Numbered from the stretch's first letter, positions 21,966 to 64,000 are shown. The stretch is 64,000 nucleotides of DNA from Patescibacteria group bacterium (GCA_042570925.1 JBHPFX010000003.1:10149-74148); one strand, 5' to 3'. The notes: a model not told the origin generated them from the letters alone. Numbers and translations: made by a program.

Positions 21966-21970
21966 TTGGT

Positions 21971-22212: not shown

Positions 22213-22248
22213 GTGGGCTGATATAGGGTTCTCCGTACGGCGGACAGG

Positions 22249-22292
22249 TAATGACGAGGTCGCCCCGCTATGGCGGGGCCGTGTGCCCACCA
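22249..22292 (+). pseudogene. Further tRNA-Ile 3'-half fragment in which a G+C hairpin replaces the T arm
   Basis: TAATGACGAGGTCG + CCCCGCTATGGCGGGG + CCGTGTGCCCACCA. Confidence 0.45.
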
Positions 22293-22345
22293 GCCGAGGT
22301 AGCCTGTCTGCCGATAGGCAGGCTCAGTAGTAGAGTCCCGCACCA
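22293..22345 (+). pseudogene. 5' part of a second tRNA-Phe-like copy (outer copy) with a hairpin insert in the D arm
   Basis: GCCGAGG-TA-G, then the insert CCTGTCTGCCGATAGGCAG, then GCTCAGTAGTAGAG. Its acceptor partner CCTCGGC is at 22563-22569. Confidence 0.45.
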
Positions 22346-22365
22346 TGTGCCTGGAGGTATATAAT

Positions 22366-22437
22366 GCCTGGGTAGCTCAGTGGTAGAGCGAAGGACTGAA
22401 AATCCTTGCGTCGGCAGTTCAATTCTGCCCCCAGGCA
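22366..22437 (+). tRNA. tRNA-Phe (anticodon GAA)
   Basis: GCCTGGG acceptor, GCTCAGTGGTAGAGC D arm, CTGAAAA loop, GGCAGTTCAATTCTGCC T arm, CCCAGGC-A. Confidence 0.9.
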
Positions 22438-22440
22438 CAT

Positions 22441-22573
22441 GTGCGGGATAGACTCTGGACTGAAAAATCCTGGAGCCTGTCCTGAACATTGCGCGGAGCG
22501 AAATGATTCAGGATCGGCAGTTTCCGCCAAAGGCGGATCCGCCCATGGCGGACAATTCTGCCCCTCGGCACCA
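22441..22573 (+). pseudogene. 3' part of the outer tRNA-Phe-like copy, with a 30-nt double-hairpin insert in the T loop
   Basis: GGACTGAAAAATCC anticodon arm, then GGCAG-TT, the 30-nt insert (22523-22552), then CAATTCTGCC-CCTCGGC-A-CCA. Confidence 0.5.
22523..22552. repeat. 30-nt G+C-rich double-hairpin insert (copy in the tRNA-Phe-like T loop)
   Basis: TCCGCCAAAGGCGGATCCGCCCATGGCGGA. The near-identical TCCGCCAGAGGCGGATCCGCCTTCGGCGGA lies at 42719-42748 inside nusA. Confidence 0.7.
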
Positions 22574-22658
22574 CGCGGCAGTAGTTTCCTTCATTTCATT
22601 CAGGACAGGCAGTTGGTAGTATGGTTTCAAAAAACTTTTAGATAATTTATTGGATAAT

Positions 22659-22733
22659 GCGGGAGTAGTTCAGTAGTAGAACGCTTCCTTGCCAAGGAAG
22701 AGGTCGCGGGTGCGAATCCCGTCTCCCGCTCCA
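22659..22733 (+). tRNA. tRNA-Gly (anticodon GCC), CCA encoded
   Basis: GCGGGAG acceptor, TTGCCAA loop, CTCCCGC-T-CCA. The T loop reads TGCGAAT, with G where U55 is expected. Confidence 0.75.
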
Positions 22734-22875
22734 TCAAGTCTTAAAGAAAAACATTCCTAGATTGATTTGCATGCTTAGCAAATTAAGCAGGAGGAAGCGA
22801 CGCAACTGCTTGCGTCGCGTCGGGATGAACAGGGCGAACGATGTCGCCTGAGGCGACCGTGAGCTTCGGCCCGAA

Positions 22876-22899
22876 GGGCGAGTCCGGTCTGCCGCTCCA
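22876..22899 (+). pseudogene. Duplicated tRNA-Gly(GCC) 3'-end fragment
   Basis: GGGCGAGTCCGGTCTGCCGCTCCA versus the tRNA GGGTGCGAATCCCGTCTCCCGCTCCA. G+C hairpins precede it. Confidence 0.45.
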
Positions 22900-23029
22900 T
22901 CGTGCCATATGTATATAGACCCCAAGATGGTGGGAGTTTGTTATAATAAATAAAGACGAGGCCGCCGTGGTGGAACCCCGCTTCTCCTTCACTGCGTTCA
23001 GGATACGCGGGGCAGGCTGGTAGAATTGT

Positions 23030-23113
23030 GGGCCAGTGGCGGAACTGGTATACGCGCTAGACTTAAAATCTGGTGGTGGCAACACCGTGTGGGTTCGACT
23101 CCCACCTGGCCCA
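23030..23113 (+). tRNA. tRNA-Leu (anticodon UAA), long variable arm
   Basis: GGGCCAG acceptor, CTTAAAA loop, GGTGGCAACACC variable arm, GTGGGTTCGACTCCCAC T arm, CTGGCCC-A. Confidence 0.85.
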
Positions 23114-23220
23114 TTAGCAAGAATAAGACTCTCGAAGCGAAGTCCTGAGCGTAGCGAAGGGCGAAGCGGAGATCCCGTCCTGAGTTTACCGAAGGACGGG
23201 ACGACCGGCGGCATATGACA

Positions 23221-23250
23221 AAAAGAGCGAGGTAGTTACTCGCTCTTTTT
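23221..23250. terminator. Bidirectional terminator between the tRNA array and the convergent gene
   Basis: AAAAAGAGCGAG-GTAGTTA-CTCGCTCTTTTT. Confidence 0.7.
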
Positions 23251-28979: not shown

Positions 28980-29039
28980 GGACCCCGCTATCCAGCGGGA
29001 TCTCGCAATTATATTTCTTATTGAGCTCGAGAATCGAGT

Positions 29040-29085
29040 TCTGGGCGCCCTTCGGTCTGAGGACCTCAGGATCGAAGACTTCGTT
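29040..29085. repeat. G+C-rich palindromic element copy
   Basis: CCCTTCGGTCTGAGGACCTCAGGATCGAAGACTTCG, related to the 18241-18317 core. Confidence 0.45.
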
Positions 29086-29160
29086 CACTCGCGCCGTTCA
29101 ATTCCAGGTATTGTATGTGTAAATCGATGCTCACAAGTTTGAAAGTGAAATCGAACTATT

Positions 29161-29235
29161 TGGAGCGGGTAACGGGAATCGAACCCGTATCTTCAGGTTG
29201 GAAACCTGACATAATAGCCATTATACTATACCCGC
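29161..29235 (-). tRNA. tRNA-Gly (anticodon UCC), CCA encoded
   Basis: The reverse complement reads GCGGGTA..TTTCCAA..ACGGGTTCGATTCCCGT-TACCCGC-T-CCA. Same architecture as E. coli tRNA-Gly2. Confidence 0.9.
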
Positions 29236-31634: not shown

Positions 31635-31682
31635 TGTTCAGCCCGAGCCACATAATAGCCAATAAAATAATCCTGCGCTGAG

Positions 31683-31756
31683 TCGGGATGCCCGGACTCG
31701 AACCGGGGACCTCTCGCTCCCAAAGCGAGCGTTCTAGCCAACTGAACTACATCCCG
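31683..31756 (-). tRNA. tRNA-Pro (anticodon UGG)
   Basis: The reverse complement reads CGGGATG-TA-GTTCAGTTGGCTAGAAC-G-CTCGC-TTTGGGA-GCGAG..CCCGGTTCGAGTCCGGG-CATCCCG-A. Confidence 0.9.
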
Positions 31757-31812
31757 ACTCAGAGCGAGATTTTTTAGTATGATATTAAGATTCTTAATGT
31801 TCACAGCGAGGG

Positions 31813-31849
31813 CCAAAGCGAGCGTTCTAGCCAACTGAACTACATTCCG
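31813..31849 (-). pseudogene. Copy of the tRNA-Pro 5' half
   Basis: CCAAAGCGAGCGTTCTAGCCAACTGAACTACAT is identical to 31721-31753, then diverges. Confidence 0.55.
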
Positions 31850-31851
31850 CG

Positions 31852-31925
31852 TGGAGGCCACGGGCGGAATCGTTTCCGGGGCGCTTCGCACGCTTGCGCC
31901 CTTCGATTCCTAACCTTCCAAGCCT
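31852..31925 (-). pseudogene. tRNA-Cys 3'-end copy interrupted by a G+C hairpin
   Basis: TGGAGGCCACGGGCGGAATCG is identical to 31964-31984. It is followed by the GGGCGC..GCGCCC hairpin insert and a T-loop remnant. Confidence 0.5.
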
Positions 31926-31963
31926 CTTGTTTTTTAAAGTTACCAAACGATGAAATATCACTT

Positions 31964-32038
<75 letters not shown>

Positions 32039-50554: not shown

Positions 50555-51487
50555 ATGCCCTCAAAACTCCAAAATTATATTACACAGTATCTCGAGTATC
50601 TTGAGATAGAAAAAAACAAATCCCCTTTAACTGTAAGGAATTATGAATTTTATCTGCGAAGATTCCTTACATGGGGCCAATTAAAAAATCCGGAAGACAT
50701 CACGCTTGAGAAAGTACGACAGTATCGCCTGTTTCTCAACCGTCTTAAAAGCCAGCGAAAAGAATTCGTAAAAAAATCAACGCAAAATTATCATCTCATT
50801 GCCCTTCGATCGTTTTTAAAATATTTAGCGCGTAATGATGTAACAACACTTGCTCCTGAGAAAATTGAACTTGCAAAGATCTCCGAACGCCAAGTTTCAT
50901 TTCTTGAAGGAGATGATCTGGAGCGTTTTCTCGAAGCTCCGTTGAAATCAAAAGAGTCAGAAATTATTCAGCAGCGTGATAAAGCACTTTTAGAACTACT
51001 ATTTTCTACTGGATTGCGTGTATCAGAGCTCGCCTCCTTACAACGCGATTCGATCAATCTTACAAAGGATGAATTCACCGTGCGCGGAAAAGGCGGAAAA
51101 CTACGAGTGGTTTTTCTTTCAAACCAATCGAAGCATTGGATAAAAAAATATCTGGCGACACGGAAAGATGATGCTTCACCACTTTTTTTACGACATGACC
51201 GGGCAGCAGCTTCTGAAAAAGATCCGAAATCAATTACCTCAAGGTCCATTCAGCGAATAGTTGAAAGTTATGCAAAGCAGGCAGGCATTACAAAAAAAGT
51301 CACCCCGCATACACTGCGCCACAGTTATGCGACTGATCTTCTCATGAACGGAGCTGATATTCGCTCGGTACAATCAATGCTCGGGCATGCCTCAATTACT
51401 ACCACACAGATTTATACTCATATAACTAATCAGCAGCTGCGAGACGTGTATAAGGCGTTTCATGCTCGAAGAAGAAAAAAGGAATGA
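50555..51487 (+). CDS. Tyrosine site-specific recombinase (XerC/XerD-like)
   Basis: N-terminal SAM-like domain (YLEYLEIEKN.SPLTV.NY). Catalytic R (GLRVSEL), HTLRHSYAT, GH and the TQIYTH tyrosine. Confidence 0.85.
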   Translation: MPSKLQNYITQYLEYLEIEKNKSPLTVRNYEFYLRRFLTWGQLKNPEDITLEKVRQYRLFLNRLKSQRKEFVKKSTQNYHLIALRSFLKYLARNDVTTLAPEKIELAKISERQVSFLEGDDLERFLEAPLKSKESEIIQQRDKALLELLFSTGLRVSELASLQRDSINLTKDEFTVRGKGGKLRVVFLSNQSKHWIKKYLATRKDDASPLFLRHDRAAASEKDPKSITSRSIQRIVESYAKQAGITKKVTPHTLRHSYATDLLMNGADIRSVQSMLGHASITTTQIYTHITNQQLRDVYKAFHARRRKKE

Positions 51488-53032: not shown

Positions 53033-53104
53033 GGTGACTATGGTGTAGTGGTAGCACAGGGGCCTGTGAAGCCCTTAGCTCGGGTTCAAATCCCGATAGT
53101 CACC
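53033..53104 (+). tRNA. tRNA-His (anticodon GUG) with encoded G-1
   Basis: G-1 + GTGACTA acceptor, GTGTAGTGGTAGCAC D arm, CTGTGAA loop, TCGGGTTCAAATCCCGA T arm, TAGTCAC-C. No CCA encoded. Confidence 0.85.
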
Positions 53105-53210
53105 CCCGCCCACCTCTTTTGTGATTTTTTTGAATTTACTTGCGTGCTTTGGCGGGCAGGGATGACCTGCTCTGAGCGTGGCCCGCCGTAGGCGGGAGAA
53201 GCCGAAGAGA

Positions 53211-53363
53211 GCCTTTAGCTCGGGTTCGAGCCCCGATAGCGACCTTTTTCTCTGAGCATTGTGTTCGAAGAAAAAGGAAAAAACATCTCCTATTCATTGT
53301 GAGGTGTTTTTGGTTCCAGAAAAGAGGTATACTATATTTAGATAATCATTAGAATAAATATGT
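53211..53363 (+). repeat. Composite intergenic element, copy 1 (starts with a long tRNA-His 3'-half-like segment)
   Basis: GCCTTTAGCTCGGGTTCGAGCCCCGATAGCGACC, hairpin 53243-53277, terminator CATCTCC..GAGGTG plus T run, then the GGTATACT promoter. Confidence 0.7.
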
Positions 53364-54743
53364 ATGATTAATCAAAGAGGATTCATTAGTGCAACATTGG
53401 TTGTCATTATTGTAGTGCTCGCAGTTTTTATGGTTGGAGTTGCTTGGTATTATGAGGAGAATAAGGAAGAAATCAGTTCGGAGACAGTAAATACTCCGAT
53501 TAATTCGAATAGCAATATTAATTCATCAATACTTCATAATACTAATTCGATAGCTTCGAATGAACTTTTTCCGAAAGTGGCATATTTAGATTCAGGTAAT
53601 ATATATTCATTAAGTTTGTCATATGCAGACGTACAACTACTTGTTTCAAATGCAACGCCAATCATTGAATACGATATTTCTGATAATGGTCAGCATATTA
53701 TATATCTTGTAGCTAGCGATAATGAAAGCGAGATACATTATTATAACGTTTTGGATGAAAATGATTCCGTAGTATTGAAGGAAACAAATGTTTATTATCA
53801 TAGTATTGCGTTGTCGCCAGATAATACAAAAATTGCATATGCAAAAAAGAATTTCAACAGCTCAGTGAATAAATTTCTTAATCAAGCAATTTATGTAAGC
53901 GACCTTAATGGTAATGATGAGAACAAAATAGTAGATATTGGAAAGACTGAGGATGAAGTTAGTGAATATTACGGTAATGATGTCTGTGAATGGTCAAATG
54001 ACTCCAATCTTATTGGGCTTGAAAAGTGGTCCCCAGAGAGTGATTATTTAGTTTATTATATAAATGATAACTATGAATGTAGTGGTCCAGGGCATTCAAT
54101 AATACACATTACTGATTTGAATGGTAATGAAAGCTTTTTTGATGAACATTTGCCAAATCCAGGGACATATATATTTAATGAAGAAGAAAGGGAGTGGAGC
54201 GCTGCGGATATTTTTTGGCAGACTTTTTCTTCGGATAATGGTGACTTTATTCTTAAACAGCGAGCAGGTATGCCCTTTGTAAATAGTAGAGTAGTATTTG
54301 TCAAGGATGGTGAGGTGGTATCCGCATTTAATACTGTTGATTACCAAGATGACGAATATCAAAATAATACCCAAAGGCTTAGATCACACTATGAATATGG
54401 ATTTGACGTAGTTGGATGGGATGAAAGAATTAGTTATTTTGGGGGTAGGGCAGGTGAACCTGGTACTAATGAAGTGATAAAGACAAACATTGCCGGAGGA
54501 AATATTATTCAGTTAACCAATACTGAGGATGATTTGGCATTTACTCACCCAATAGTAATTGATGATGAGTATGTACTTTTTAGAAGGTATAATATAGATC
54601 CAGTTACTAATCAATACGGAAATACGTCTAGTTCTAAATCAGATACGTATGATATTTTAGTAAAGAATGTTGAAAATAATGAAGAAACTATTATTACTGA
54701 GGGGGCAGCTTTTAATCTGTTGAAGATTTACAGGTTGGAATGA
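53364..54743 (+). CDS. Pilin-signal-like anchored surface protein, family member 1 (C-terminal TolB/beta-propeller-like repeats)
   Basis: MINQRGFISATLVVIIVVLAVFMVGVAWYYEENKEE, an Asn/Ser-rich linker, then repeats such as DISDNGQHIIYL and IALSPDNTKIAYA. Confidence 0.6.
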   Translation: MINQRGFISATLVVIIVVLAVFMVGVAWYYEENKEEISSETVNTPINSNSNINSSILHNTNSIASNELFPKVAYLDSGNIYSLSLSYADVQLLVSNATPIIEYDISDNGQHIIYLVASDNESEIHYYNVLDENDSVVLKETNVYYHSIALSPDNTKIAYAKKNFNSSVNKFLNQAIYVSDLNGNDENKIVDIGKTEDEVSEYYGNDVCEWSNDSNLIGLEKWSPESDYLVYYINDNYECSGPGHSIIHITDLNGNESFFDEHLPNPGTYIFNEEEREWSAADIFWQTFSSDNGDFILKQRAGMPFVNSRVVFVKDGEVVSAFNTVDYQDDEYQNNTQRLRSHYEYGFDVVGWDERISYFGGRAGEPGTNEVIKTNIAGGNIIQLTNTEDDLAFTHPIVIDDEYVLFRRYNIDPVTNQYGNTSSSKSDTYDILVKNVENNEETIITEGAAFNLLKIYRLE

Positions 54744-54792
54744 TTGTTACTTTTTTTGGGTTGATTTGATCATATTGAATCGCTTAGATAGG

Positions 54793-54987
54793 TTTGACAT
54801 ATACCCAAAATCACCAAAAACTCCCATAAGATTAGTTAAAATAACGTACCGATAGCCACCTTTTTCTCTGAGTATTAGATTCGGAGCAAAAGGAAAAGAC
54901 ATCTTCCCCACACCATATAATGGTGTGTGGGAGAGGTGTTTTTGTTAGAGAAATGGTATAATGAATATATAAAATTAATATAATAAA
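54793..54987 (+). repeat. Composite intergenic element, copy 2
   Basis: Box A, CCGATAGCCACC, hairpin 54859-54893, long terminator hairpin 54898-54943, TGGTATAAT extended -10. Confidence 0.7.
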
Positions 54988-55701
54988 ATGCAAATAGCAG
55001 ATAATAAGAAGTTAAAAAAGCATCCCCTTGATTATGCGATAAAATCATCTCGTGTCATAGCCACAATTATCCTTTTTTATGGATTTATGATGGGCTTGGC
55101 AATTGGTTTTTTCGGTATCCCTCTAAACATTACCGTTTATGGTACATCAATTTCTGGATTTATTCCCTACCTTATCGCCATAGTAATAGCTGTAGCCTCA
55201 TTCATTTTATATCCAATATTATTAAAAAAGAAGTATCCTGGCATTAAAACAAATATATATACTATTGGAAAATTAAAAACGCACGTTGGATTATTAACCC
55301 TTATCGCAGGCGGAGCTGGTTTCGTCTTAGCATTATGGGCATATATTCTTCTTTTTATCAAAACATCAGATAATACCTCCATCAATGAATTTCTATATTA
55401 CCCAAACTATGCAACTAAAATTGCATTTATACCTATAATTGCCTCGGTTTATTTTTCTTTTCTTAAAAAAATAATATCTCACTCCCTAAAAGCAATCGAG
55501 CTTGTTTTTCTTGTTTTTTCTACAATCCTGTTAATTATGGTGGCTGCTTTCATTTCTTTTGTGGGCATCAGTAATTCAATGATTGAAAACTGGTGGTTAC
55601 TCATTCCTGACTTGATTGCCGGAGGCTCATCATATACTTTTGCTATGTTCTTTTTGCTAAAATTTAGGCCCACGGAAAATATACAGTCTTCAAGCACTTA
55701 A
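54988..55701 (+). CDS. Hypothetical multi-pass membrane protein
   Basis: Six or so hydrophobic segments. No motif. Confidence 0.5.
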   Translation: MQIADNKKLKKHPLDYAIKSSRVIATIILFYGFMMGLAIGFFGIPLNITVYGTSISGFIPYLIAIVIAVASFILYPILLKKKYPGIKTNIYTIGKLKTHVGLLTLIAGGAGFVLALWAYILLFIKTSDNTSINEFLYYPNYATKIAFIPIIASVYFSFLKKIISHSLKAIELVFLVFSTILLIMVAAFISFVGISNSMIENWWLLIPDLIAGGSSYTFAMFFLLKFRPTENIQSSST

Positions 55702-55780
55702 TAATTGGAGCACTAAAGTTCGAAAACTATCAAATTCAAACAATAAGAACTCTGAACAGTTATTCCTATTGAGCAATACT

Positions 55781-56791
55781 TTAATTGGCTCCTGTAAAGC
55801 TAAAACTTTCGACTACTTCTGTAAAAATCTGCTCCGCAGTTTGTTGAACATCAGCGCCATACAATACGCTAATCTCAAATATTATTGATCCTTCTCCCTG
55901 AGGGCTGTTTATTGTGTCAGTGTTATATATAACCGTCGAATAATTGATAGGTGAATCAGGTGTTTGTTCAGTACCGCTCAGTTTCTTTGCTGCATAGCCG
56001 CCTAAAGTTGAACTTGTTTCACTAGTTAAACTACGAGAATAGTCACCAGAGCTATTAAAATTTGGGCTAGTATATTCATCTTGAGTATCTAACATAACAC
56101 TAATAGACATACAATCTGCGGGTATTGAAAAAATCTCAAAACTTCTAATTAAGCAATCCTCACTTGAGTAATACGTTCTATTGGCGTCATAAATTGACAC
56201 TGTACTTTCAAGGCCTGATTCGCTCAAGTCTAAAAAATATAAATTATCAGGGTACTCAAAAGAAAAACTATAATCATCATTAGTATATGTTAACCAATTA
56301 TCCAGCATCGTGTTTGTTAATTGGGTATTGGTGCTTTCAGTAGAATTTACATTACTTGTATTTATATTATCTATATTTTCATTAATATTTCTAACAAGTT
56401 GGGTATTTGTATTATCTGCAAATAAATTTTCGTTAAGATTCCCTAAGTTAATATTACTATTCTGATTAACTAAAGAATTAACATTAGAGACAGGGGTGTT
56501 TTTTATTACAACACCCTCCGTTTTATTATCTTTATTGAAAAACAAAAAATATACTGCTAAACCAGCTAAGATAACAAATACAACAACTACGATTATAATT
56601 AGTGTGGACTTATTACTAGCGCTTACCGTCACATTTGGCTGTCTAGCACTTTTCTGGACGTCAGATGGATTTAATATTTCAGAAATCATTTCTCGAGTAT
56701 AACCCTGAGCCAATAATTTTTCGGTAATTTGTTCATCTGTTAAGCCAGCAGCCCTTGCCTGCTCTAACCATTGTTTAATTGCATCATTCAT
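55781..56791 (-). CDS. Membrane-anchored surface protein with the N-terminal helical module, an Asn-rich linker and a unique C-terminal domain
   Basis: MNDAIKQWLEQARAAGLTDEQITEKLLAQGYTREMISEIL is about half identical (by eye) to the N-terminus of 23943-26717. TM, then an NVNSLVNQNSNINLGN.. linker. Confidence 0.6.
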   Translation of the reverse strand: MNDAIKQWLEQARAAGLTDEQITEKLLAQGYTREMISEILNPSDVQKSARQPNVTVSASNKSTLIIIVVVVFVILAGLAVYFLFFNKDNKTEGVVIKNTPVSNVNSLVNQNSNINLGNLNENLFADNTNTQLVRNINENIDNINTSNVNSTESTNTQLTNTMLDNWLTYTNDDYSFSFEYPDNLYFLDLSESGLESTVSIYDANRTYYSSEDCLIRSFEIFSIPADCMSISVMLDTQDEYTSPNFNSSGDYSRSLTSETSSTLGGYAAKKLSGTEQTPDSPINYSTVIYNTDTINSPQGEGSIIFEISVLYGADVQQTAEQIFTEVVESFSFTGAN

Positions 56792-56825
56792 AGTTTATAT
56801 ATTTAGTAATCTAACATCCTTTATT

Positions 56826-57010
56826 AAGCTTACCATATACCCAAAATCCTCCAAAACCTTAACAAACTCAGACTTTTTAGTTAAACTAACCTTATCCCTC
56901 GACTCGTTCCACTTGCTCGGGACAGGCGGTAGCGACCTTTTTCTCTGAGCATTTAAGTTCGAAGAAAAAGGAAAAGACATCTCCCCTTATGAGGGAGGTG
57001 TTTTTGGTAT
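56826..57010 (+). repeat. Composite intergenic element, copy 3 (+ orientation between two minus-strand genes)
   Basis: Box A, a G+C tract, GGTAGCGACC, hairpin 56936-56971, terminator 56976-57005. Confidence 0.65.
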
Positions 57011-57013
57011 TAT

Positions 57014-57337
57014 TTATTCGCTACTCAACGCTACAATAATCAAAGTTATAAATGCAAGTACTATTAAAGAAAAATATATAGCAAGTCTACTAATAATTTT
57101 TCCTTTAGACGTATTTTTTTTAGTTTTATAAAGGCTGATAATACCTAGAACAAGAGGTATGAAAAAAGAGATTATAATTAAGTCTATTCGGAGAACTTCT
57201 GATATGTCCATCATAAACAAAATAAAGTTCGTTCCGGCAATTAGAAATAAAACAAAAGCAATAATTGCTAATTTGTTAAATTTCTTCTTTGGTTGTTCTG
57301 ACTGTGGCGCTGGTTGTTGTTTTGTTAGTTCTTCCAT
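57014..57337 (-). CDS. Hypothetical small 3-TM membrane protein
   Basis: Hydrophobic segments only. Confidence 0.45.
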   Translation of the reverse strand: MEELTKQQPAPQSEQPKKKFNKLAIIAFVLFLIAGTNFILFMMDISEVLRIDLIIISFFIPLVLGIISLYKTKKNTSKGKIISRLAIYFSLIVLAFITLIIVALSSE

Positions 57338-57370
57338 ATTTATATCTTTAGTGACTTAATCTCCTGCATT

Positions 57371-57560
57371 AAGTCTACCACATACCTAAAATCCCCTAAA
57401 ACCCTCATAAGATTAGTTAAAATAACGTACCGATAGGGACCTTTTTCTCTGAGCATTGTGTTCGAAGAAAAAGGAAAAAACATCTCCTATTCATTGTGAG
57501 GTGTTTTTGGTTCCAGAAAAGAGGTATACTATATTTAGATAATCATTAGAATAAATATGT
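57371..57560 (+). repeat. Composite intergenic element, copy 4
   Basis: Box A, CCGATAGGGACC, hairpin 57440-57474. Identical to copy 1 from 57438 onward. Confidence 0.7.
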
Positions 57561-58358
57561 ATGATTAATCAAAGAGGATTCATTAGTGCAACATTGGTTG
57601 TCATTATTGTAGTGCTCGCAGTTTTTATGGTTGGAGTTGCTTGGTGGTATGAGGAGAATAAAGAGGAGGTTGCAAATACTCAGGTTGTTAGTAACGAATC
57701 TATTGAAAACAATTCTGTAAATGTGAAGAATTCGAATGCAATAAATTCTAATGCAGCAACGAATACTAATTTCGTTTCCAACACCAATTCAACTACTAAT
57801 GTAAACACAAACGTTACCTCAGATAGTGGCAATAACTGGCGCACAGTTAATTATAATAAAAACGATTTGAGTTTTTTAATCAGCGTTCCTGCTGACTGGA
57901 GAGAAGAAACCAGCCTCTATAATCCACCACGAGAAAGATATTCTTTGATTAGTTATACTTGGCCGCCAGAAAGTGGCGTTACTCAATATCTCAGATTAAT
58001 TGTCAGATATTTTATAAATGATGAAGCCTCATTAAAGGAGTGGGTTGATAAGCACGAAACACATCTCCGAGAAGGTGAACAAAATCATAATCGTCTAACA
58101 GAACTTACTTTGAGCGAAATAACAGTTAATGGAGAGTTAGGATATGCATATGACGCTGATTATAAAAGAACAATTGGCGAGTGGGATGATGAAGGAAATT
58201 ACGTTGGAACTAAAATTGAGCATAAATCATACAAATATATTAATTTTCAAAAAGATAATAAAATTTATCAAATTTATATTGGTGGTGATAATAATCTCGT
58301 AATCGATAATCAGGATTTAATTATTGAAATTATTGACTCCTTTAATTTTCTCGAATAA
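57561..58358 (+). CDS. Pilin-signal-like anchored surface protein, family member 2
   Basis: The first 28 aa are identical to 53364-54743. AWWYEENKEE, an Asn/Thr-rich linker, and an unrelated C-terminal domain. Confidence 0.6.
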   Translation: MINQRGFISATLVVIIVVLAVFMVGVAWWYEENKEEVANTQVVSNESIENNSVNVKNSNAINSNAATNTNFVSNTNSTTNVNTNVTSDSGNNWRTVNYNKNDLSFLISVPADWREETSLYNPPRERYSLISYTWPPESGVTQYLRLIVRYFINDEASLKEWVDKHETHLREGEQNHNRLTELTLSEITVNGELGYAYDADYKRTIGEWDDEGNYVGTKIEHKSYKYINFQKDNKIYQIYIGGDNNLVIDNQDLIIEIIDSFNFLE

Positions 58359-58550
58359 GTCTACCATATACCTGAAATCCCCTAAAACACCCATAAGGTT
58401 AGTACAAATAAGCGACCCCTTCGGCTTCGCTCAGGGCAGGCCGATAGGGACCTTTTTCTCTGAGCATTTACGTTCGGAGCAAAAGGAAAAGACATCTCTC
58501 AGGTTATGAGAGGTGTTTTTTTATAATAGAATAATGCTATAATTTAATAT
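58359..58550 (+). repeat. Composite intergenic element, copy 5
   Basis: Starts right after the stop codon. Box A, CTTCGGCTTCGCTCAGGGCAGGCCGATAGGGACC, hairpin 58451-58486, terminator, then TGCTATAAT 7 nt before the ATG. Confidence 0.7.
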
Positions 58551-58997
58551 ATGAAATTCATTTCTTCATTGCTCATACTCGTATCTAGTATAGCCGGCGG
58601 CATCTTTTTGGCTAGGCTGATAAAGAATAAAATAACTGATTTCAAAAAATACGGAGTCTTGTTTATTATTTATTCATTTGTAAATATTGCACTCCTTGGC
58701 TTAAGTGAGAAGACTCAAGTATTAATAATAGATATATATGTTGCGTGGACTATCGCCTTTGCAGCACTTATTATTTTTTTAATTCTTGTTCGAAAACAAC
58801 CAAGTATAAAAAAAATATTAAGCTTACGAGAAAATGTGAGTTATGAGTGGAGTAAAGATGCTAAGTTATTTCAGAAGGTGATCATACGGCTATCCACTGT
58901 TGGAGCACTTTATGGAGTAATTATATTAGCTTATTTTGACTTATTCGGGATTGTAATTGCGATTATTGAAGTATTAAAGAGAGTTAATCTTATTTGA
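58551..58997 (+). CDS. Hypothetical 4-TM membrane protein (possibly a leaderless mRNA)
   Basis: Hydrophobic segments. The -10 box ends 7 nt before the ATG. Confidence 0.45.
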   Translation: MKFISSLLILVSSIAGGIFLARLIKNKITDFKKYGVLFIIYSFVNIALLGLSEKTQVLIIDIYVAWTIAFAALIIFLILVRKQPSIKKILSLRENVSYEWSKDAKLFQKVIIRLSTVGALYGVIILAYFDLFGIVIAIIEVLKRVNLI

Positions 58998-59082
58998 TTA
59001 CAAACATCTCCCTTTTTGAAGAAGTGTTTTTGGTTGGGAAAAAGAGTATAATATATTTAGATAATCATTCAAATATATACCT
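58998..59082 (+). repeat. Composite element, short form (terminator and promoter modules only)
   Basis: ACATCTCCC..GAAGTGTTTTTGG, then AGAGTATAATATATTTAGATAATCATT. Confidence 0.55.
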
Positions 59083-60147
59083 ATGAATTATCAAAAGGGT
59101 TTTACTCATTGGGTAGTTGTAATTCTCATTTCTGTTATAGCTGTGGGTTTGGTCGGTGCAGCTTGGTATTATGAGGAGAATAAGGAAGAAGTAACCACTA
59201 CGACCAATACAGGCACTATCAATGTAAATACAAATATTGTACCCACTAATTCAGCAGTAAACACCAATACAGCTGTAAATGTAAATAGTTCTACAAACAC
59301 GAACACTGTAATTGATGAAACTGATGATTGGCAAGTACATAGAGATGATTTTAGATACGGCTTTACGTTTAAGTATCCAACTGATTGGGAATTTAGCTTT
59401 ACAGACCAATTAGATAAGTCTGAAATTTTATTTAGAGTATCAAATTCAAATGGCTCAAAATTTGACGTGCTACCATTAGGTGACTTTGATTTTGAATTGA
59501 GCGAAATAATTACATCAGAGACAGTAATAATTGATGGTCAATCAGCACAGAAAACCGTTTATAAAGACTCACCAAATTATGAAATATATTCCATAATCGA
59601 CTATGAATTAAATGAGTGGACATCCTCTAATAGGATTGAGCTTATTCCAACTAATGAAGCAGATGCTGAAATTCTTCAAAATATTCTTTCTACATTCGAA
59701 TTCCTCCAAGACACCTCTGATTGGTTGACGTATACGAATGATGAGTATGGGTATTCTATTAGCTACCCCAATGACTGGACCACAACGTCAACTCTAGCAA
59801 GTCCTGGTTCCATCGGTATCTACGCGCCAAGCGATTCTGCGCATATAACCATTGTTCCCGACTACGGTATCAACACTCTTGGCTTCGACGCTCTCACACA
59901 ATCCACTACACAAACAATATTAGGCGGGGAAGCAGTCACTCAGGTCACTTGGCGAGATGCAGATGGGATGCTAGAGCACTGTTCATACCAATTTGAGCAG
60001 TCACCAAATGAAAGCTGGGTACCCGCTGTGGTGACCAACGAAATACATACGACTACAGAGACTCCACCAGGTAATTTCATCAATTACGAATGTGCGGATG
60101 AAGTGACGGTTCCACAAATCCTCTCCACTTTCCAATTCACCGATTAG
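59083..60147 (+). CDS. Pilin-signal-like anchored surface protein, family member 3
   Basis: MNYQKGFTHWVVVILISVIAVGLVGAAWYYEENKEE, a Thr/Asn-rich linker, and two related C-terminal repeats (DDWQVHRDD..YPTDWEF / SDWLTYTNDEYGYSISYPNDWTT). Confidence 0.6.
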   Translation: MNYQKGFTHWVVVILISVIAVGLVGAAWYYEENKEEVTTTTNTGTINVNTNIVPTNSAVNTNTAVNVNSSTNTNTVIDETDDWQVHRDDFRYGFTFKYPTDWEFSFTDQLDKSEILFRVSNSNGSKFDVLPLGDFDFELSEIITSETVIIDGQSAQKTVYKDSPNYEIYSIIDYELNEWTSSNRIELIPTNEADAEILQNILSTFEFLQDTSDWLTYTNDEYGYSISYPNDWTTTSTLASPGSIGIYAPSDSAHITIVPDYGINTLGFDALTQSTTQTILGGEAVTQVTWRDADGMLEHCSYQFEQSPNESWVPAVVTNEIHTTTETPPGNFINYECADEVTVPQILSTFQFTD

Positions 60148-60189
60148 TACCACAATCTAGCTCAGTACTTGTTTACTTTCGTGTAGTAG

Positions 60190-60395
60190 CTTTCTGGTAT
60201 ACCTAAAATCCCTTAAAACCTTTATAAGATTAGTACAAATAAGCGACCCCTTCGGCTTCGCTCAGGGCAGGCCGATAGGGACCTTTTTCTCTGAGCACTT
60301 ATGTTCGGAGCAAAAGGAAAAGACATCCTCCCTTTTATAAGAGGAGGTGTTTTTGGTAAGAAAGTGATATAATATATCTAACTTAATGAATTACT
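60190..60395 (+). repeat. Composite intergenic element, copy 7
   Basis: Box A and a G+C tract identical to copy 5. Hairpin 60282-60317, terminator, TGATATAAT. Confidence 0.7.
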
Positions 60396-60872
60396 ATGAC
60401 TTTAGATAAACAGACAAATCAAACATTAAATCCATCTTCGAAAAAACCAATAACACTTAAACCGATTATTGCCATATTAATACTTGTTAGTATAGTAAAT
60501 TTATTTTCATTCTTTACTATTGGAGGGTGCAAATACTCACTCATTAACCTTCATATTAATGAGGTGGTACCTACAGATACCATAATTGAGTTTGAGTGTT
60601 CAGGATTAAATGTTAATGGAGAATACTCTGGGAGGGATTTTACAATTGAAGGTACGGCTAATCCAAGTTTTGCTTTTGGAAAATCAAATATAAACATTAT
60701 TGGCAATACTCAGGATGGTAACCAATATGAAGTAAGCGCATACACTCGTTATAATACAATTGGTATTTTTCTAGGTCTATCATTATATTCTTGGCCGATA
60801 TTAATAGTTGTATTAGTAGTCTTACTAATAGTGAATATAAGTAGAAGGAGAATTAAGTCAACAGATTTATAA
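60396..60872 (+). CDS. Hypothetical protein with N- and C-terminal TM segments
   Basis: Hydrophobic ends around a beta-rich middle. No motif. Confidence 0.45.
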   Translation: MTLDKQTNQTLNPSSKKPITLKPIIAILILVSIVNLFSFFTIGGCKYSLINLHINEVVPTDTIIEFECSGLNVNGEYSGRDFTIEGTANPSFAFGKSNINIIGNTQDGNQYEVSAYTRYNTIGIFLGLSLYSWPILIVVLVVLLIVNISRRRIKSTDL

Positions 60873-60899
60873 TAAAATTTGTTTTACTTCTTTCAATAA

Positions 60900-61100
60900 A
60901 ACTCTCGTACACCCAAAATCACCTAAAACACCCATAAGATTATTTAATATAACCTTACCCTTCAACTTCCCCTTCGATTCGCTCAGGGCGGGGCCGATAG
61001 GGACCTTTTTCTCTGAGCATTATGTTCGGAGCAAAAGGAAAAGACATCTCTCTATTCAAGAGAGGTGTTTTTGATTTAAGAAAAGGAGTATACTACAAGT
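60900..61100 (+). repeat. Composite intergenic element, copy 8
   Basis: Box A, CCCTTCAACTTCCCCTTCGATTCGCTCAGGGCGGGGCCGATAGGGACC, hairpin 61004-61038, terminator, promoter. Confidence 0.7.
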
Positions 61101-61748
61101 ATGAATGATTCAATTTCCTATACAATTACCTCCTCTGAATTTGCTAAGAGATTAGAGGCTACAAAATATCGGTTGGTTCCTGTTTTTATCTTTATCATTA
61201 TTGGTCTGGCAGCTTACGCATTCATCGACTCAGGTAGCAGCACTGCAATCTCAGTTCTTGTCGTTGGACTAATATTTATCGTTGCAGGAATAATTAAAAT
61301 TCGATTTCAAAAACCCTCCACAACTAAAATTGATGTTGAAATTAACAGAAATGGTATTACGATTAAAAAGGATAAAGTAATTCAGTATGATTGGAAAGCA
61401 TTTAAGAAAGTTATGACTAGTACTGAATATGTTAAAAGCTATTCTCCAACTTTTTTCAATAGTTTTGGTTTTGAAAGATTATTTTATACTTCTGCACAAG
61501 TCTCAGAAGAAACTCACGGAAGAGTTTTTTATTTGATTTTTAAGAAAGGATCCTCTCTTTATGGTCATCAACATCTGATAGTATATGCTGAGCCCGATAA
61601 CTATCAGGAAGTTGAAAACTTATTACATAAATACCTGCCGCATCCTCAGGAGGCCACTCCAGTAAATAAATTGAAGAATTTCTTAATAGGACTTGCTTTT
61701 GTAGTGATTGCTATCGGACTGGTAGCTTTAATATTTATTATAGTATAG
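61101..61748 (+). CDS. Hypothetical membrane protein (two N-terminal TM segments, a soluble domain, a C-terminal TM)
   Basis: Hydrophobicity pattern only. Confidence 0.45.
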   Translation: MNDSISYTITSSEFAKRLEATKYRLVPVFIFIIIGLAAYAFIDSGSSTAISVLVVGLIFIVAGIIKIRFQKPSTTKIDVEINRNGITIKKDKVIQYDWKAFKKVMTSTEYVKSYSPTFFNSFGFERLFYTSAQVSEETHGRVFYLIFKKGSSLYGHQHLIVYAEPDNYQEVENLLHKYLPHPQEATPVNKLKNFLIGLAFVVIAIGLVALIFIIV

Positions 61749-61845
61749 ATACAATAATCGAAGAAAAGACATCTCCCCTTTTGAGCGAAGTCCCGAACCC
61801 TTTATGTGGTGAGGGAGGAGGTGTTTTTGGTTTTACATATGAATG
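61749..61845 (+). repeat. Composite element, terminator module with a G+C-rich insert in its loop
   Basis: GACATCTCCCC, then the insert TTTTGAGCGAAGTCCCGAACCC.., then GGGAGGAGGTGTTTTTGG. Confidence 0.5.
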
Positions 61846-62175
61846 TTACCTAAAGCATGAACAAGGCTTGTTGCGAAGTATATATACCTGACGGTTTGGT
61901 TTATCAATAAATTTTTTTTGGATTCTTACGCCTATCGCCTTTGTATACTCAAGAGGCGTCAAATGGCAGTAGCCCCGTCTTTTCATCTCGAGGACGAGTT
62001 TTTCATGGCGCATATAGAGAGCTTTGAGCTTTCCTATCCAGCGTTGCGTCTCGGGGTGATTGCGGTACCCGCATTTGTTTTTTGTGAGTATCGACCATAC
62101 GGCGTGCAACTCCCGGTGCTCTCCTAAGAGATGCTGTCTACATAATTTTTTTGGTGCGATATCCCAAATACGCAT
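61846..62175 (-). CDS. Pyrimidine-dimer DNA glycosylase (T4 endonuclease V / DenV family)
   Basis: MRIWDIAPKKLCRQHLLGEHRELHAVWSIL....GYRNHPETQRW matches the family pattern M R.W..P..L....L..E.RE, including the catalytic Glu context. Confidence 0.75.
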   Translation of the reverse strand: MRIWDIAPKKLCRQHLLGEHRELHAVWSILTKNKCGYRNHPETQRWIGKLKALYMRHEKLVLEMKRRGYCHLTPLEYTKAIGVRIQKKFIDKPNRQVYILRNKPCSCFR

Positions 62176-62254
62176 AGAGAAGTAGTATACTAACGAACAA
62201 TTATTAAATCAAAAACACTTCTGTTATTCAAAAAGTGTTTTTGAAAGTCTGAAA

Positions 62255-62548
62255 TTACTTCACGTGTTCTGATACTGCACCTGGGTACATTTGTGCAAGA
62301 TCGCTGACCAAGTCACCAAATGTCATGCCGTCAACACCATGTGCTGCAGGCATACCCATACCGTTTCCACCCATGTTGCTCACGTGTTCAGAGATTACTC
62401 CAGGTTCGAGACTTGAAACCATCATACCAAATGTTTTCCCGTCAACACCATGTGCTGCAGGCATACCCATAGCTACTACTGGAGTGGCAACGAGTGCACC
62501 GAGTCCAAAGATGAATGAGAAGATTAATGCTTTTTTCATGAAGTTCAC
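62255..62548 (-). CDS. Small secreted protein with an internal tandem duplication
   Basis: Signal peptide, then two copies of MGMPAAHGVDG[KM]TFG..VS.L....[AV][IV]SEHV. Confidence 0.5.
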   Translation of the reverse strand: MNFMKKALIFSFIFGLGALVATPVVAMGMPAAHGVDGKTFGMMVSSLEPGVISEHVSNMGGNGMGMPAAHGVDGMTFGDLVSDLAQMYPGAVSEHVK

Positions 62549-62687
62549 CTCCTTTCATACGTAGATAATTTTCATCACTATTCTGTATGCCAAGTGTACT
62601 CGACACCTGAAATTCGGTCGGTATGCAAAAACACAAAAAGATGTGTATTCACATCTTTTTGTAATATTTACTTACTATTATTTGATC

Positions 62688-63479
62688 TTATACAGGACGG
62701 AGCGTGCCAGCAAATACCTGCCATGCGAGCAATGATTTTGCCACAAGGCTTAAAATAATATACGCACGTTCGCCATACAGGTAATCTCGCCACTTGCCGA
62801 CTTTTTTGTACTGCAAGATCATATTAATGGCAAAAGAATTGAAGAAGAGGAATATTGAGAAATAAATCCAGTATACGAACGCTGGCGCTTTATTATCTCC
62901 CTCACCTGCCAAAAACAGGTAAAAACCAACGACCACCCAGGGAATAGCTCCTGCTAATATTCCAAACCAGTATGATGTCCAATTGGTTTTTTCAGTTCTC
63001 TGATTGTGAAGCTCCATCATCCAGCCAAATAAAATCATCATCATATTGAGAAAGAATATCATCAGCAGACCAAGTCCGTCATAAAGACCAACGAGCATTG
63101 CAATAATTACAATCATCAAGGAAGAGCTAAACGCGTATTCTATCCAACGAGCTTTATTAATTCCTATTTTCAAATTGGCCACATATTTTTTATAACCGGC
63201 TGGCAATGAAATGAATAGATGAGCTAAAGCAGATATAAATAAGAACGCAGCCACCAGCGGCCCTATTTGGACGGAGAATTCTGTTTGTAATACTGGTTCT
63301 AATTTTAGTGTGATCGTATTCATTTCCACGAAGGCTGATGTAACTGGAAGCGAGAAATCAGAGCTTAAAAACAGCATCAGAAATCCCTGAATGGCATGCA
63401 TTACCGCCATAATGACATTAAAACGCCTTAATTTTGGAAACTTTGTGTCTTCGATAAATTGTTGATTTTGTTCTTCCAT
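62688..63479 (-). CDS. Heliorhodopsin
   Basis: Collinear with heliorhodopsin 48C12 as I recall it: RWIEYAFSSSLMIVIIA, MILFGWMME, FLFFNSFA, YLYGERAYIILSLVAKSLLAWQVFAGTL, including the retinal Lys in SLVAKS. Seven TM segments. Confidence 0.85.
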   Translation of the reverse strand: MEEQNQQFIEDTKFPKLRRFNVIMAVMHAIQGFLMLFLSSDFSLPVTSAFVEMNTITLKLEPVLQTEFSVQIGPLVAAFLFISALAHLFISLPAGYKKYVANLKIGINKARWIEYAFSSSLMIVIIAMLVGLYDGLGLLMIFFLNMMMILFGWMMELHNQRTEKTNWTSYWFGILAGAIPWVVVGFYLFLAGEGDNKAPAFVYWIYFSIFLFFNSFAINMILQYKKVGKWRDYLYGERAYIILSLVAKSLLAWQVFAGTLRPV

Positions 63480-63524
63480 AGTTATGAATTTAATAATTTA
63501 ATCTTATTGTTTAATTCTAGCATA

Positions 63525-63720
63525 TATGAAAAATCAGCAAAAACCCTCATAAGATTAGTTAAAATAACCATACCCTTCGACTTCCCCTTCGATTCGCTAC
63601 GCTCACTCAGGATTCGCTCAGGGCGGGGCCGATAGGGACCCCATCAAAAAATCATCCTACAGATATGTTCTTAGGGTGGTTTTTTGTTTGAGAAAAATGC
63701 TACAATACATTCAGATAATT
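63525..63720 (+). repeat. Composite intergenic element, copy 10 (lacks the 35-nt hairpin)
   Basis: Box A remnant CCCTCATAAGATTAGTTAAAATAA, a long G+C tract ending GGCCGATAGGGACC, terminator CATCCTA..TAGGGTG plus T run, TGCTACAAT. Confidence 0.6.
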
Positions 63721-63775
63721 ATTAATACTAAAAACTATAGCTTGTTTCATTGCTCCGACAGCAGCAGCAATCATT

Positions 63776-64000
63776 GTGACTGCGGTCAGGAAAAAAATCC
63801 CATCTCCTTACCACATTAAATGGCTTTTTGCCCTTCTTTGGGGTGGAGTGGTATGGCTTATACCGGAACATATCTACCACGGCGAGGTGGTACTCTATCC
63901 GCCCTTCTTTACCGCCGGTCTTGATAACATAATTCCCGAAGTTATCAGGGTTGGCGTTCCCATGACCATCGCTGCAATTACTGTATGGCTAGTTATGATT
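63776..64000 (+). CDS. Hypothetical membrane protein, 3' end beyond the window (start uncertain)
   Basis: The frame is open from 63722 to the window end and is hydrophobic (LFALLWGGVVWLIPEH..). The first plausible start is GTG 63776. Confidence 0.3.
   Translation, partial: MTAVRKKIPSPYHIKWLFALLWGGVVWLIPEHIYHGEVVLYPPFFTAGLDNIIPEVIRVGVPMTIAAITVWLVMI

Follow-up and report, generated by a model that had tools for sequence, protein, structure and literature searches.

Why two genes of a Patescibacteria group bacterium that encode proteins with different bodies should begin with the same sequence, base for base, is the question raised by a locus in a 64,000-nt stretch of its genome (GCA_042570925.1 JBHPFX010000003.1:10149-74148), here called the window; positions are counted from its first nucleotide, and genes and modules lie on the plus strand unless the minus strand is given. 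A first-pass annotation of the sequence had described a perfect direct repeat of 208 bp at 53241-53448 and 57438-57645, and string comparison confirms the identity over all 208 nt. The block runs from the last 4 nt of a tRNA-like core to codon 28 of a gene for a protein of 459 amino acids (aa) in the first copy, and to codon 28 of a 265-aa gene in the second, and it contains what had been claimed for it, namely a hairpin, a terminator, a promoter, a 5' untranslated region (5'UTR) and 28 codons (in copy 1, hairpin 1 at 53243-53277, an A/U-flanked terminator-type hairpin at 53278-53311, the -10 box TATACT at 53328-53333 and the ATG at 53364). What that annotation was silent on is that the pair represents only two of the eight copies of a larger junction module, and that the block starts within a 3'-end fragment of tRNA-His, a boundary common to seven cassettes. 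The answer which we consider rather probable is that the locus at 53.1-63.7 kb is a flexible cassette island behind tRNA-His, and that the 208-bp block is the 5' end of a cassette.

A chance origin of the block is excluded, as an 18-mer at its left end occurs 7 times where 0.05 occurrences are expected. Among the 28 possible pairs of junction modules, the longest exact match is 208 nt for the first and the fourth (J1/J4), 68 nt for J5/J6, and 9-31 nt for the others, and since the right-arm identity of the other pairs is 62-82%, J1/J4 is a clear outlier. The bases flanking the block differ (C versus G at 53240/57437, ATTA versus GGTA on its 3' side), but the divergence outside it is not as complete as had been thought: a repeat search of the window extends the similarity to 53233-53470 and 57430-57667 (238 nt, 98%), about 25 nt of which continue the homology behind the block (encoding WYYEENKEE or WWYEENKEE) with 4 differences. 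The jump from 0/208 differences to 4/27 within a still homologous stretch agrees with the recent gene conversion or recombination that had been proposed. On the left side, the identity ends where the homology ends, with tRNA sequence at J1 and the left arm at J4. On the right side, there is a three-way mosaic with a sharp breakpoint at 53448/53449, between codons 28 and 29. Upstream of it, gene 1 (459 aa) equals gene 4 (265 aa), and the identity to the third paralogue, the 354-aa gene at 59083, is only about 60-85%; past the sequence GCTTGGT, gene 1 reads ATTATGAGGAGAATAAGGAAGAA and is identical to the third paralogue, whereas gene 4 differs from both at four positions. As gene 1 turns identical to the third paralogue at this breakpoint and gene 4 does not, a recent gene conversion or crossover between paralogous 5' modules would be the simplest account of the perfect identity and, judging from the sequence, its best explanation. 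Homogenisation tracts are found also at J5/J6 and J7/J8, which shows homogenisation to be general in the array. A simple segmental duplication was rejected, because flanks and interior are unrelated.

The consequences of an exchange between the two blocks follow from their geometry. As the repeats are direct, a crossover would remove or circularise 4197 bp, just as had been pointed out, and three complete genes, for proteins of 237, 336 and 107 aa, do lie in this segment, though the body of gene 1 is also inside. The further idea that such a crossover would place a new C-terminal domain behind the shared module does not hold for the event itself: the blocks are direct and both are complete, so that no fusion is created and no silent gene is activated, and the exchange would only excise cassettes 1-3 and put an unchanged gene 4 beside tRNA-His. 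On the evolutionary scale the idea is justified, as one N-terminal anchor module has been joined to many C-terminal domains across the clade. The perfect identity and the position of the 4.2-kb segment rest on one assembly, the consensus of which may mask small differences.

The junction modules J1-J8 are anchored at 53241, 54857, 56934, 57438, 58449, 60280, 61002 and 63637, are about 190-250 nt long, have one orientation, and are all found within 53.2-63.7 kb, the remaining 53 kb of the window being free of them; the same family emerges from a repeat search, a pattern search that tolerates mismatches, an alignment with MAFFT and an nhmmer profile. The module begins with a conserved left arm of about 75 nt (...TAAGTCTACCATATACCYAAAATCCCCTAAAAC..CATAAGATTAGTTAAAATAAC), which in some copies is followed by GC-rich hairpins of 20-60 nt (CCCTTCGRCTTC...GCTCAGGGC), and continues with a 12-nt core, CCGATAGGGACC or a near variant, which is a fragment of the tRNA-His 3' end. 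Then come hairpin 1, a 35-nt palindrome (CCTTTTTCTCTGAGC-loop-GTTCGRAGMAAAAGG), hairpin 2, which is of the A/U-flanked terminator type (AAAAGACATC...GGTGTTTTT), and finally the -10 box and leader of the next rightward gene. Every copy of both hairpins folds, with z-scores of -4 to -7. The inner stems of hairpin 2 vary in sequence among the copies while the pairing is kept, as is expected of functional terminators that diverged long ago, and hairpin 2 could, by its sequence, stop transcription from both sides. Terminator-like sites are enriched (18 versus 6.3 in shuffles), whereas a simple sigma-70 scan is not (46 versus 44 in shuffles), and the promoters were called from conserved alignment positions and not from that scan. 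Each rightward cassette has its own -10 box after the terminator. On the minus strand of the left arm, a TGn-extended -10 box (TGGTAGACT, TGCTAGAAT) can be read off the sequences as a leftward promoter; it is intact at J3, J4 and J8, which are followed by a leftward gene, and has decayed at J2, J6 and J7, which come after rightward genes. Three cassettes contain leftward genes.

The individual copies differ in completeness. J2 (54789-54962; nhmmer 134 bits) has the left arm, the core CCGATAGCCACC, hairpin 1, a long terminator and TATAAT, and J3 (56824-57012) has the left arm, a GC-rich hairpin, the core GCGGTAGCGACC, hairpin 1 and the terminator without a rightward -10 box. J4 (57369-57531), which contains the left part of the second 208-bp copy, has the left arm, the core CCGATAGGGACC, hairpin 1 at 57440-57474, the terminator at 57475-57508 and TATACT at 57525-57530. 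J5 (58355-58543) was recognised by nhmmer (193 bits), alignment and fold, J6 (60186-60374) has its 68-nt exact stretch in common with J5, and J7 (60896-61095) again follows from nhmmer, alignment and fold. The terminal J8 (63512-63706) possesses the left arm, GC-rich hairpins and the core CCGATAGGGACC, with no hairpin 1, and in J1 the place of the left arm is taken by a spacer of 100 nt and the 35-nt partial copy of the 3' half of tRNA-His. This lack of a left arm at the first junction and of hairpin 1 at the last is the pattern expected of an array that is bounded by chromosomal sequence. The left arms pair as J2/J4, J5/J6 and J7/J8, the right arms as J1/J4 and J2/J5/J6/J7. Searching Rfam with the junction gave no match at the gathering or the E<=1 threshold, and a match to CRISPR-DR65 at E=0.5 was judged to be chance. 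In genome and metagenome collections, the strict junction pattern was detected at only four loci, in single copy, and there was no match in viral contigs; the contigs that carry hairpin 1 (L001-L004) yield only single junction copies, as they are short.

What links the junctions to tRNA-His is the gene that anchors the array, a tRNA-His (GUG) at 53033-53107 (ARAGORN; 67.6 bits with the Rfam tRNA model). It is followed by a spacer at 53108-53209 with a GGCGGGC...GCCCGCC hairpin that is kept behind tRNA-His in relatives (window 52981-53157 matches positions 12246-12426 of the relative L012 at 72% in blastn; L numbers here denote such loci elsewhere), and then by the partial copy of the tRNA-His 3' half at 53210-53244, which comprises the T arm and the acceptor 3' strand, is 83% identical to 53070-53104, and forms J1, the left boundary of cassette 1. 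In sequence, the partial copy in J1 is nearer to the L015 allele of tRNA-His than to the tRNA-His gene of the window itself, and the core of J2 matches the 3' end of the L015 tRNA-His. The cores of the junctions other than J1 correspond to the last 12 nt of a tRNA-His, and going by their sequences they look like acceptor 3' strands of different tRNA-His alleles. At the far end, the core of J8 runs straight into CCATCAAAAAATCATCC...GGGTGGTTTTTTG, a flank that resembles the native tRNA-His trailer of L005, CCACCAGAAAATCATCC...GGGTGGTTTTTTGA (blastn 77%), and the array therefore lies between the tRNA-His 3' end and an apparent ancestral trailer, which marks its end. Its GC content is 32-37% over most of the length, versus about 42-45% in the flanks. 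As in tRNA islands generally, the array thus starts at an intact tRNA gene, the 3' part of which recurs in direct orientation at all eight junctions.

Partial 3'-end copies are not restricted to tRNA-His. Seven of the nine tRNA genes in the window (Ile, Phe, Gly-GCC, Gly-UCC, Pro, Cys, His) have a partial copy of their own 3' end downstream (21971-23114, 29161-29235, 31682-32038 and 53033-53244), 12-35 nt long and at a distance of 50-180 nt, with two such copies for Pro and Ile. Local alignment scores of 11-29 for the downstream copies exceed those of upstream controls (5-10) and the 95th percentile at random (8-9). The pattern exists also in L003, L009 (there at tRNA-Lys) and L015, and integration at tRNA genes could have left the 3' copies behind most of the others as additional traces. 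Some further observations were made at these tRNA genes. Between tRNA-Cys and tRNA-Pro, the 5' half of tRNA-Pro is present once more, up to the anticodon, and downstream of a 16S rRNA gene come the genes for tRNA-Ile, Phe, Gly and Leu (20124-23114); no 23S rRNA gene was found within the 64-kb window, so that the rRNA operon is unlinked. GC-rich hairpins resembling repetitive extragenic palindromic (REP) sequences (GTCCTGAGCGAAGTCGAAGGAC, reverse complement CCCTTCGACTTCGCTCAGGG) occur in tRNA trailers (22050-22200, 23115-23230, 29000-29160) and in the interior of several junctions (56890-56925, 58400-58440, 60230-60270, 60950-60995, 63570-63630), and similar GC-rich hairpins split the T-loop of partial tRNA copies in L003, L009 and L015.

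The locus varies among relatives, as becomes clear from syntenic loci of six lineages that were found via heliorhodopsin and the recombinase. The core order PNPase, NYN, S15 and an Xer-like recombinase is kept in all lineages, and five of them (the window, L005, L011, the L012 group and L015) continue with tRNA-Arg, usually GIDE, and tRNA-His, an HNH gene being present at the place of GIDE in L005. Behind tRNA-His, L005 has genes for a zinc-ribbon protein, a high-GC secretion-tail protein and heliorhodopsin, L011 has a HAD hydrolase, DUF1003 and an ABC transporter, L012, L013, L014 and L018 have an anchored 370-aa protein followed by 403-aa and 592-aa proteins, and L015 has a GH130 protein and a glycosyltransferase. 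The flanks are thus conserved and the content behind tRNA-His differs among related genomes, which is another mark of tRNA islands. In L005, the end of each of three cassettes is formed by a left arm and a core (GCGGTAGGGACC or ATCGGTAAGGACC), followed by a terminator that resembles the trailer. In L012, the first gene is preceded by a partial tRNA copy, which is degenerate, and by what remains of hairpin 1, and it is followed by a junction of arm, core and CCAC. In L003, from a different lineage, tRNA-His and a spacer precede a partial copy of the 3' end of that same tRNA, and hairpin 1 is well conserved there and accompanied by the terminator. Together, the tRNA fragments, the trailer-like end and the variable content in relatives are what repeated integration at a tRNA gene classically leaves behind.

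The heliorhodopsin gene is instructive with respect to transfer. Between the window and L005 (10001-10792), the heliorhodopsins are 90% identical at the amino-acid and 79% at the nucleotide level, compared to about 65-70% nucleotide identity of the flanking core genes, and in L009 (10001-10804) heliorhodopsin lies beside a tRNA-Lys gene the 3' end and trailer of which are duplicated; a further locus is L004 (76-873). The identity above that of the core genes and the location at tRNA-Lys suggest that heliorhodopsin moves horizontally as a cassette among Patescibacteria. A 92%-identical heliorhodopsin was seen also in L007, from the same sample as L010, within a one-directional run of small open reading frames (ORFs; 8800-20800) that contains at least 7 interspersed copies of ATGAAAAAACCAC..., some of which are real gene starts (MKKPLLIT...) and some remnants of 12-16 codons. 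A second kind of array, in which a 5' module recurs, may be present in L007; the L007 repeat is of a different kind and there is no junction of the window type, for which reasons it was not used as evidence for the array described here.

Seven cassettes of 0.5-2.6 kb with 12 ORFs lie between tRNA-His and J8. Four of the ORFs encode anchored proteins, of which those of 459, 265 and 354 aa have N-rich linkers and the fourth has 336 aa, five encode small membrane proteins and one a 97-aa repeat protein, and the last interval also contains a pyrimidine-dimer glycosylase and the heliorhodopsin. Cassette 1 consists of the 459-aa gene (53364-54743), with the N-terminal anchor, the N-rich linker and a C-terminal TolB-like beta-propeller match that is weak (E=4e-4, under cutoff). 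Cassette 2 (54988-56791) comprises ORFs for a 237-aa multi-pass membrane protein (54988-55701) and, on the minus strand, the 336-aa anchored protein (55781-56791), neither with a Pfam match above cutoff. The 107-aa membrane protein of cassette 3 (57014-57337, minus strand) would be expressed from the left arm of J4, its gene ending at the terminator of J3; its N-terminus resembles that of the L012 592-aa gene product (blastp), and 57306-57423 matches L012 16990-17107 (blastn). Cassette 4 holds the 265-aa gene (57561-58358), with the same N-terminal anchor as cassette 1, an N-rich linker and a C-terminal domain.

Cassette 5 begins with an ORF for a 148-aa membrane protein (58551-58997), and then comes a third, diverged module of terminator, promoter, 5'UTR and anchor (59002-59200; about 72-75% identical to the perfect pair, 71.6% over 201 nt in blastn) that has neither the tRNA-like core nor hairpin 1. 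This module leads into the gene of the 354-aa anchored protein (59083-60147), which has two PsbP-like modules (Pfam PsbP_2 at 9.8e-5, under cutoff). The N-terminus of the 370-aa protein of L012, MNNRLGYIHWVVVILIAVIAVGLVGVAWYY, encoded there by the first gene behind tRNA-His, is very similar to the N-terminal module of the 354-aa protein, and the PsbP-like motif is common to both, but as the overall identity is only 26% (blastp 1e-21), their orthology remains tentative. Cassette 6 encodes a 158-aa membrane protein (60396-60872), and cassette 7 is a composite (61101-63479) of a 215-aa membrane protein (61101-61748) and three genes on the minus strand, for the pyrimidine-dimer DNA glycosylase (61846-62175; Pfam Pyr_excise 1.5e-26), the 97-aa repeat protein (62255-62548) and the heliorhodopsin (62688-63479; Pfam Heliorhodopsin 3.1e-99), so that heliorhodopsin is two genes away from the glycosylase (61846-63479). 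In the 97-aa ORF, for which no known family was matched, there is an internal 111-bp direct repeat (62315-62360 and 62426-62471, 93%) encoding GMPAAHGVDG(K/M)TFG. With PHROGs, no phage functions were detected among the cassette proteins, save for one marginal holin-like match of the 107-aa protein. Downstream of the array, the gene at 63700-64000 is homologous to a 112-aa membrane protein encoded directly behind tRNA-Arg in L009; it has the promoter/leader motif AGATAATYATTA as in the cassette genes, and no canonical start codon where the ATG of L009 aligns.

The genes at 53364, 57561 and 59083 form a family with a conserved 5'UTR and N-terminal block and divergent bodies, and this family is clade-wide. 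The anchor modules (53364-53470, 57561-57667 and 59083-59190 in the window; P0246-P0283 among clade proteins) have the motif xNQ(K/R)G(F/Y)...VG(A/V)AW(Y/W)YEENKEE followed by a T/N-rich linker, as read in 17 homologues. In an exhaustive HMMER search, about 45 proteins of 98-815 aa matched only the first 40-110 residues of the 265-aa protein, and their C-terminal parts are mutually unrelated, with PsbP-like repeats, beta-propellers and cysteine-rich domains. The first-pass annotation had recommended a search for other C-terminal domains on this N-terminal block, and among the clade proteins there are many; conversely, in P0242 the C-terminal domain of the 265-aa protein (45% identity) stands behind another variant of the N-block. 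The leader, xNQ(K/R)G(F/Y)...VGAAWYYEENKEE, resembles that of type IV prepilins (class III) with their G|F cleavage motif, and Q(K/R)G|F/Y with a hydrophobic helix is found in all three window proteins and the homologues read, the +5 position being T or V, not Glu. The Pfam N_methyl model gave no match in the anchor proteins of the window, and their N-terminus MINQRGFISATLVVIIVVLAVFMVGVAWYYEENKEE has no cysteine for a lipobox.

In the cassette island as we envisage it, the junction module would insulate each cassette transcriptionally and would also be the sequence where cassettes are gained, lost and shuffled. The cassettes would have accumulated through repeated integration at the tRNA-His 3' end, most likely by a tyrosine recombinase supplied in trans, and cassettes 1 and 4 would have become identical by a recent homologous exchange of their 5' modules, the breakpoint of which is seen between codons 28 and 29 of gene 1. 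A trans-acting candidate, by position only, is the Xer-like tyrosine recombinase of 310 aa that is encoded 1.5 kb upstream of tRNA-His (50555-51487; Pfam Phage_integrase 8.9e-42), although it is at the same time a syntenic core gene product. Its best matches are models of the XerD/XerC/XerA type: in NCBIfam, XerD and XerC stay under cutoff, and the XerA-type model NF040815 gives 235 versus a cutoff of 220, whereas the protein fails the integron-integrase models (TIGR02249 with 130 bits versus a cutoff of 265, NF011946 with 81 versus 435). Protein P0121 of an NCBI contig is 100% identical to it, and its gene adjoins that of S15 in L005, L009, L010, L011, L012 and L015.

Several observations weigh against this picture. 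With 67-78% identity and core-gene synteny, the neighbouring recombinase gives the impression of a housekeeping Xer that is passed on vertically, and no recombinase family was found among the 12 cassette ORFs with Pfam, nor among the 10 that were scanned against PHROGs. The junction cores of L005 mismatch the 3' end of its own tRNA-His, which is awkward for a simple site-specific integration there, and hairpin 1 has no compensatory changes: no variation is seen in its left arm, and the two variants of its right arm each bring one mismatch. In L012 there is a left arm without adjacent core or hairpin, so that the left arm may be only a promoter module. The contig of the closest relative, L010 (86.6% nucleotide identity), stops 213 nt past the recombinase gene and thus before the array, and the observations, which come from an assembly only, include neither an excised circle nor an empty site. 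A serious alternative is that homologous recombination of conserved intergenic modules after uptake of related DNA could build such an array without any site-specific enzyme, and it fits with the solitary arm of L012, with the mismatch of the L005 cores to the tRNA of that genome, and with the missing compensation in hairpin 1.

It is also possible, though we would regard it as doubtful, that the system is integron-like in the sense that the tRNA-like core and the 35-nt palindrome form an attC-like site at which a tyrosine recombinase excises and re-inserts circles, and that the 208 bp are identical because the 5' end of a cassette was recently exchanged or re-inserted by duplication. There is overlap between this reading and the cassette island outlined above, from which it differs in that site-specific catalysis would be the main driver. 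It is in line with this idea that the junctions all have one orientation and that the first and the last are structured as expected, that a circularised cassette would hold the full unit of promoter, gene, left arm, core, hairpin and terminator, and that left and right arms group differently across the core, as expected of exchange at the core. Also the hairpin 1 region is 98% identical over 51 nt between J3 and L002, despite only 64% identity of the L002 heliorhodopsin, and the recombinase gene is located 1-2.5 kb from the variable tRNA locus in all six of the six lineages examined. The recombinase, however, reaches less than half of the bit score required by the integron-integrase model TIGR02249 and behaves as a core gene, and neither a GTTRRRY/RYYYAAC motif nor an Rfam match was found at the junction; the spacer of the palindrome is variable both in its sequence and in its length, unusually so for a crossover region, the hairpin is missing from the junctions of L005 and L009, and here, too, neither a circle nor an empty site was observed.

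That the assembly itself produced the identity, either by collapsing similar copies or by threading in a 4.2-kb segment from a strain or circle via the shared repeat, is improbable. The source is a Patescibacteria contig of metagenome or single-cell type, a 208-bp exact repeat is longer than a typical k-mer, and a graph of repeat, segment and repeat would fit an integrated segment as well as a chromosome plus a 4197-bp circle; also the 100% identity is conspicuous beside the lower values of all other junction pairs. Two real copies are nevertheless required by the left flanks (tRNA spacer versus left arm) and the right flanks, which differ, the breakpoint corresponds to a biologically sensible mosaic with the third paralogue, and the 68-nt exact tract of J5/J6 is a case of homogenisation elsewhere in the array.

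Programmed antigenic or phase variation via the conserved 5' block, after the model of the vsp, vpma and vsa loci of Mycoplasma, had been brought up as an analogy and is very unlikely as a mechanism. Mycoplasma switches work through inversion around a single promoter. The copies described here are direct and not inverted, which rules out inversion switching, and all have their own -10 box and start codon, none being silent; a crossover would result in deletion or excision only, with gene 4 unchanged and no fusion, there is no lipobox cysteine at the N-terminus, and only two copies are identical. The likeness is nonetheless real in that promoter, 5'UTR and N-terminal anchor are common to three paralogous genes, and that the anchor family is joined to many C-terminal domains. 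In the Mycoplasma loci (Xer1/Hvs), expression is described as being switched by Xer1-mediated site-specific recombination among lipoprotein genes, and there too a conserved 5' non-coding region with an N-terminal export/anchor block precedes divergent bodies and an Xer-type gene lies nearby, xer1 being located beside the vpma genes (PMC2268961). No more credible is a selfish intergenic repeat of the REP type or a miniature inverted-repeat transposable element (MITE) that spread among pre-existing genes and left the 208-bp pair as its two youngest copies, for although the unit is short, non-coding and palindromic, and GC-rich REP-like hairpins occur within some copies and in other tRNA trailers, all eight copies lie in one orientation in a single low-GC locus of 10.5 kb and none in the other 53 kb, which disposes of a dispersed MITE, the genes between the copies are non-syntenic with relatives, the identical block reaches 85 nt into the coding region, and each copy contains a tRNA-His fragment.

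The closest known systems are tRNA-anchored islands that grow by tandem accretion, including tycheposon islands, and integron cassette arrays. As in tRNA islands (in the logic of Islander/TIGER, and in the tycheposons of Prochlorococcus, bioRxiv 10.1101/2020.12.28.424599), an intact tRNA stands at one end and direct partial 3' fragments separate the inserts, and with tycheposon islands the locus has in common the conserved tRNA locus, the small streamlined genome, a content that differs between relatives, and niche-related cargo. Tycheposons and classical islands, however, measure several kb or more and each encode an integrase of their own, often together with replication genes, whereas the units described here have 0.5-2.6 kb and no detectable recombinase, and the separating module is much longer, with the tRNA fragment accounting for only 12-35 nt of it. 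With integron arrays (sedentary chromosomal integrons, and clusters of attC sites lacking integron-integrases, CALINs) the array shares small, mostly single-gene units of largely unknown function, palindromic sites in the same orientation, a tyrosine recombinase near one end and a fixed starting site. The recombinase, however, fails the IntI model, and, as judged by box motifs, the palindrome differs from attC: at seven junctions its right arm is GTTCGAA or GTTCGGA, the fourth position being C, and RYYYAAC is missing from its left side. Unlike integron cassettes, which are mostly promoterless, are read from a common promoter, Pc, and have one orientation, the cassettes here have their own promoters and terminators and occur in both orientations, and there is a tRNA fragment in each site and a tRNA gene instead of attI as anchor.

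The pdif modules of Acinetobacter and the IMEX elements are likewise small recombinase-less modules with short palindromic sites for which the host Xer is the candidate catalyst. The pdif sites are dif-like, have 28 bp (11-6-11) and alternate in orientation, whereas the palindrome described here has arms of about 14 nt and a variable centre of 5-8 nt, has one orientation, and is attached to a tRNA fragment; we know of no dif site to which it is similar. What distinguishes the array from islands and integrons alike are the self-expressing cassettes, the composite boundary of tRNA fragment, palindrome, terminator and promoter, and the missing dedicated integrase. In full-text searches of the literature, no description of such arrays in the candidate phyla radiation (CPR) was found. 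It is conceivable, and we put this forward only tentatively, that the locus represents a distinct and previously undescribed cassette-capture system of Patescibacteria, integron-like in function and built differently. With the same caution, it may be that small recombinase-less expression cassettes, self-contained by virtue of a promoter each and a shared terminator, are swapped at a composite site of the tRNA-His 3' fragment and the 35-nt palindrome, a reaction which the adjacent Xer may catalyse.

CPR bacteria, or Patescibacteria, have tiny genomes and depend heavily on their cell surface, and to our knowledge very few mobile elements or mechanisms of gene exchange have been described for them. 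If homologous recombination alone maintains the array, it would be a clear case of concerted evolution and domain shuffling at a tRNA-linked hotspot, and not a new kind of element. If the locus is a distinct system, this system would diversify the cell-surface proteome and carry light-related genes such as heliorhodopsin between lineages. The junction sequence can be used as a probe for such arrays in metagenomes. A tRNA-anchored stack of mini-cassettes would offer these bacteria a concrete and testable route to surface-protein variation and to the gain of accessory genes, which at this locus include heliorhodopsin and the UV-damage glycosylase, and the same route would explain the clade-wide family in which one N-terminal anchor is combined with many domains.

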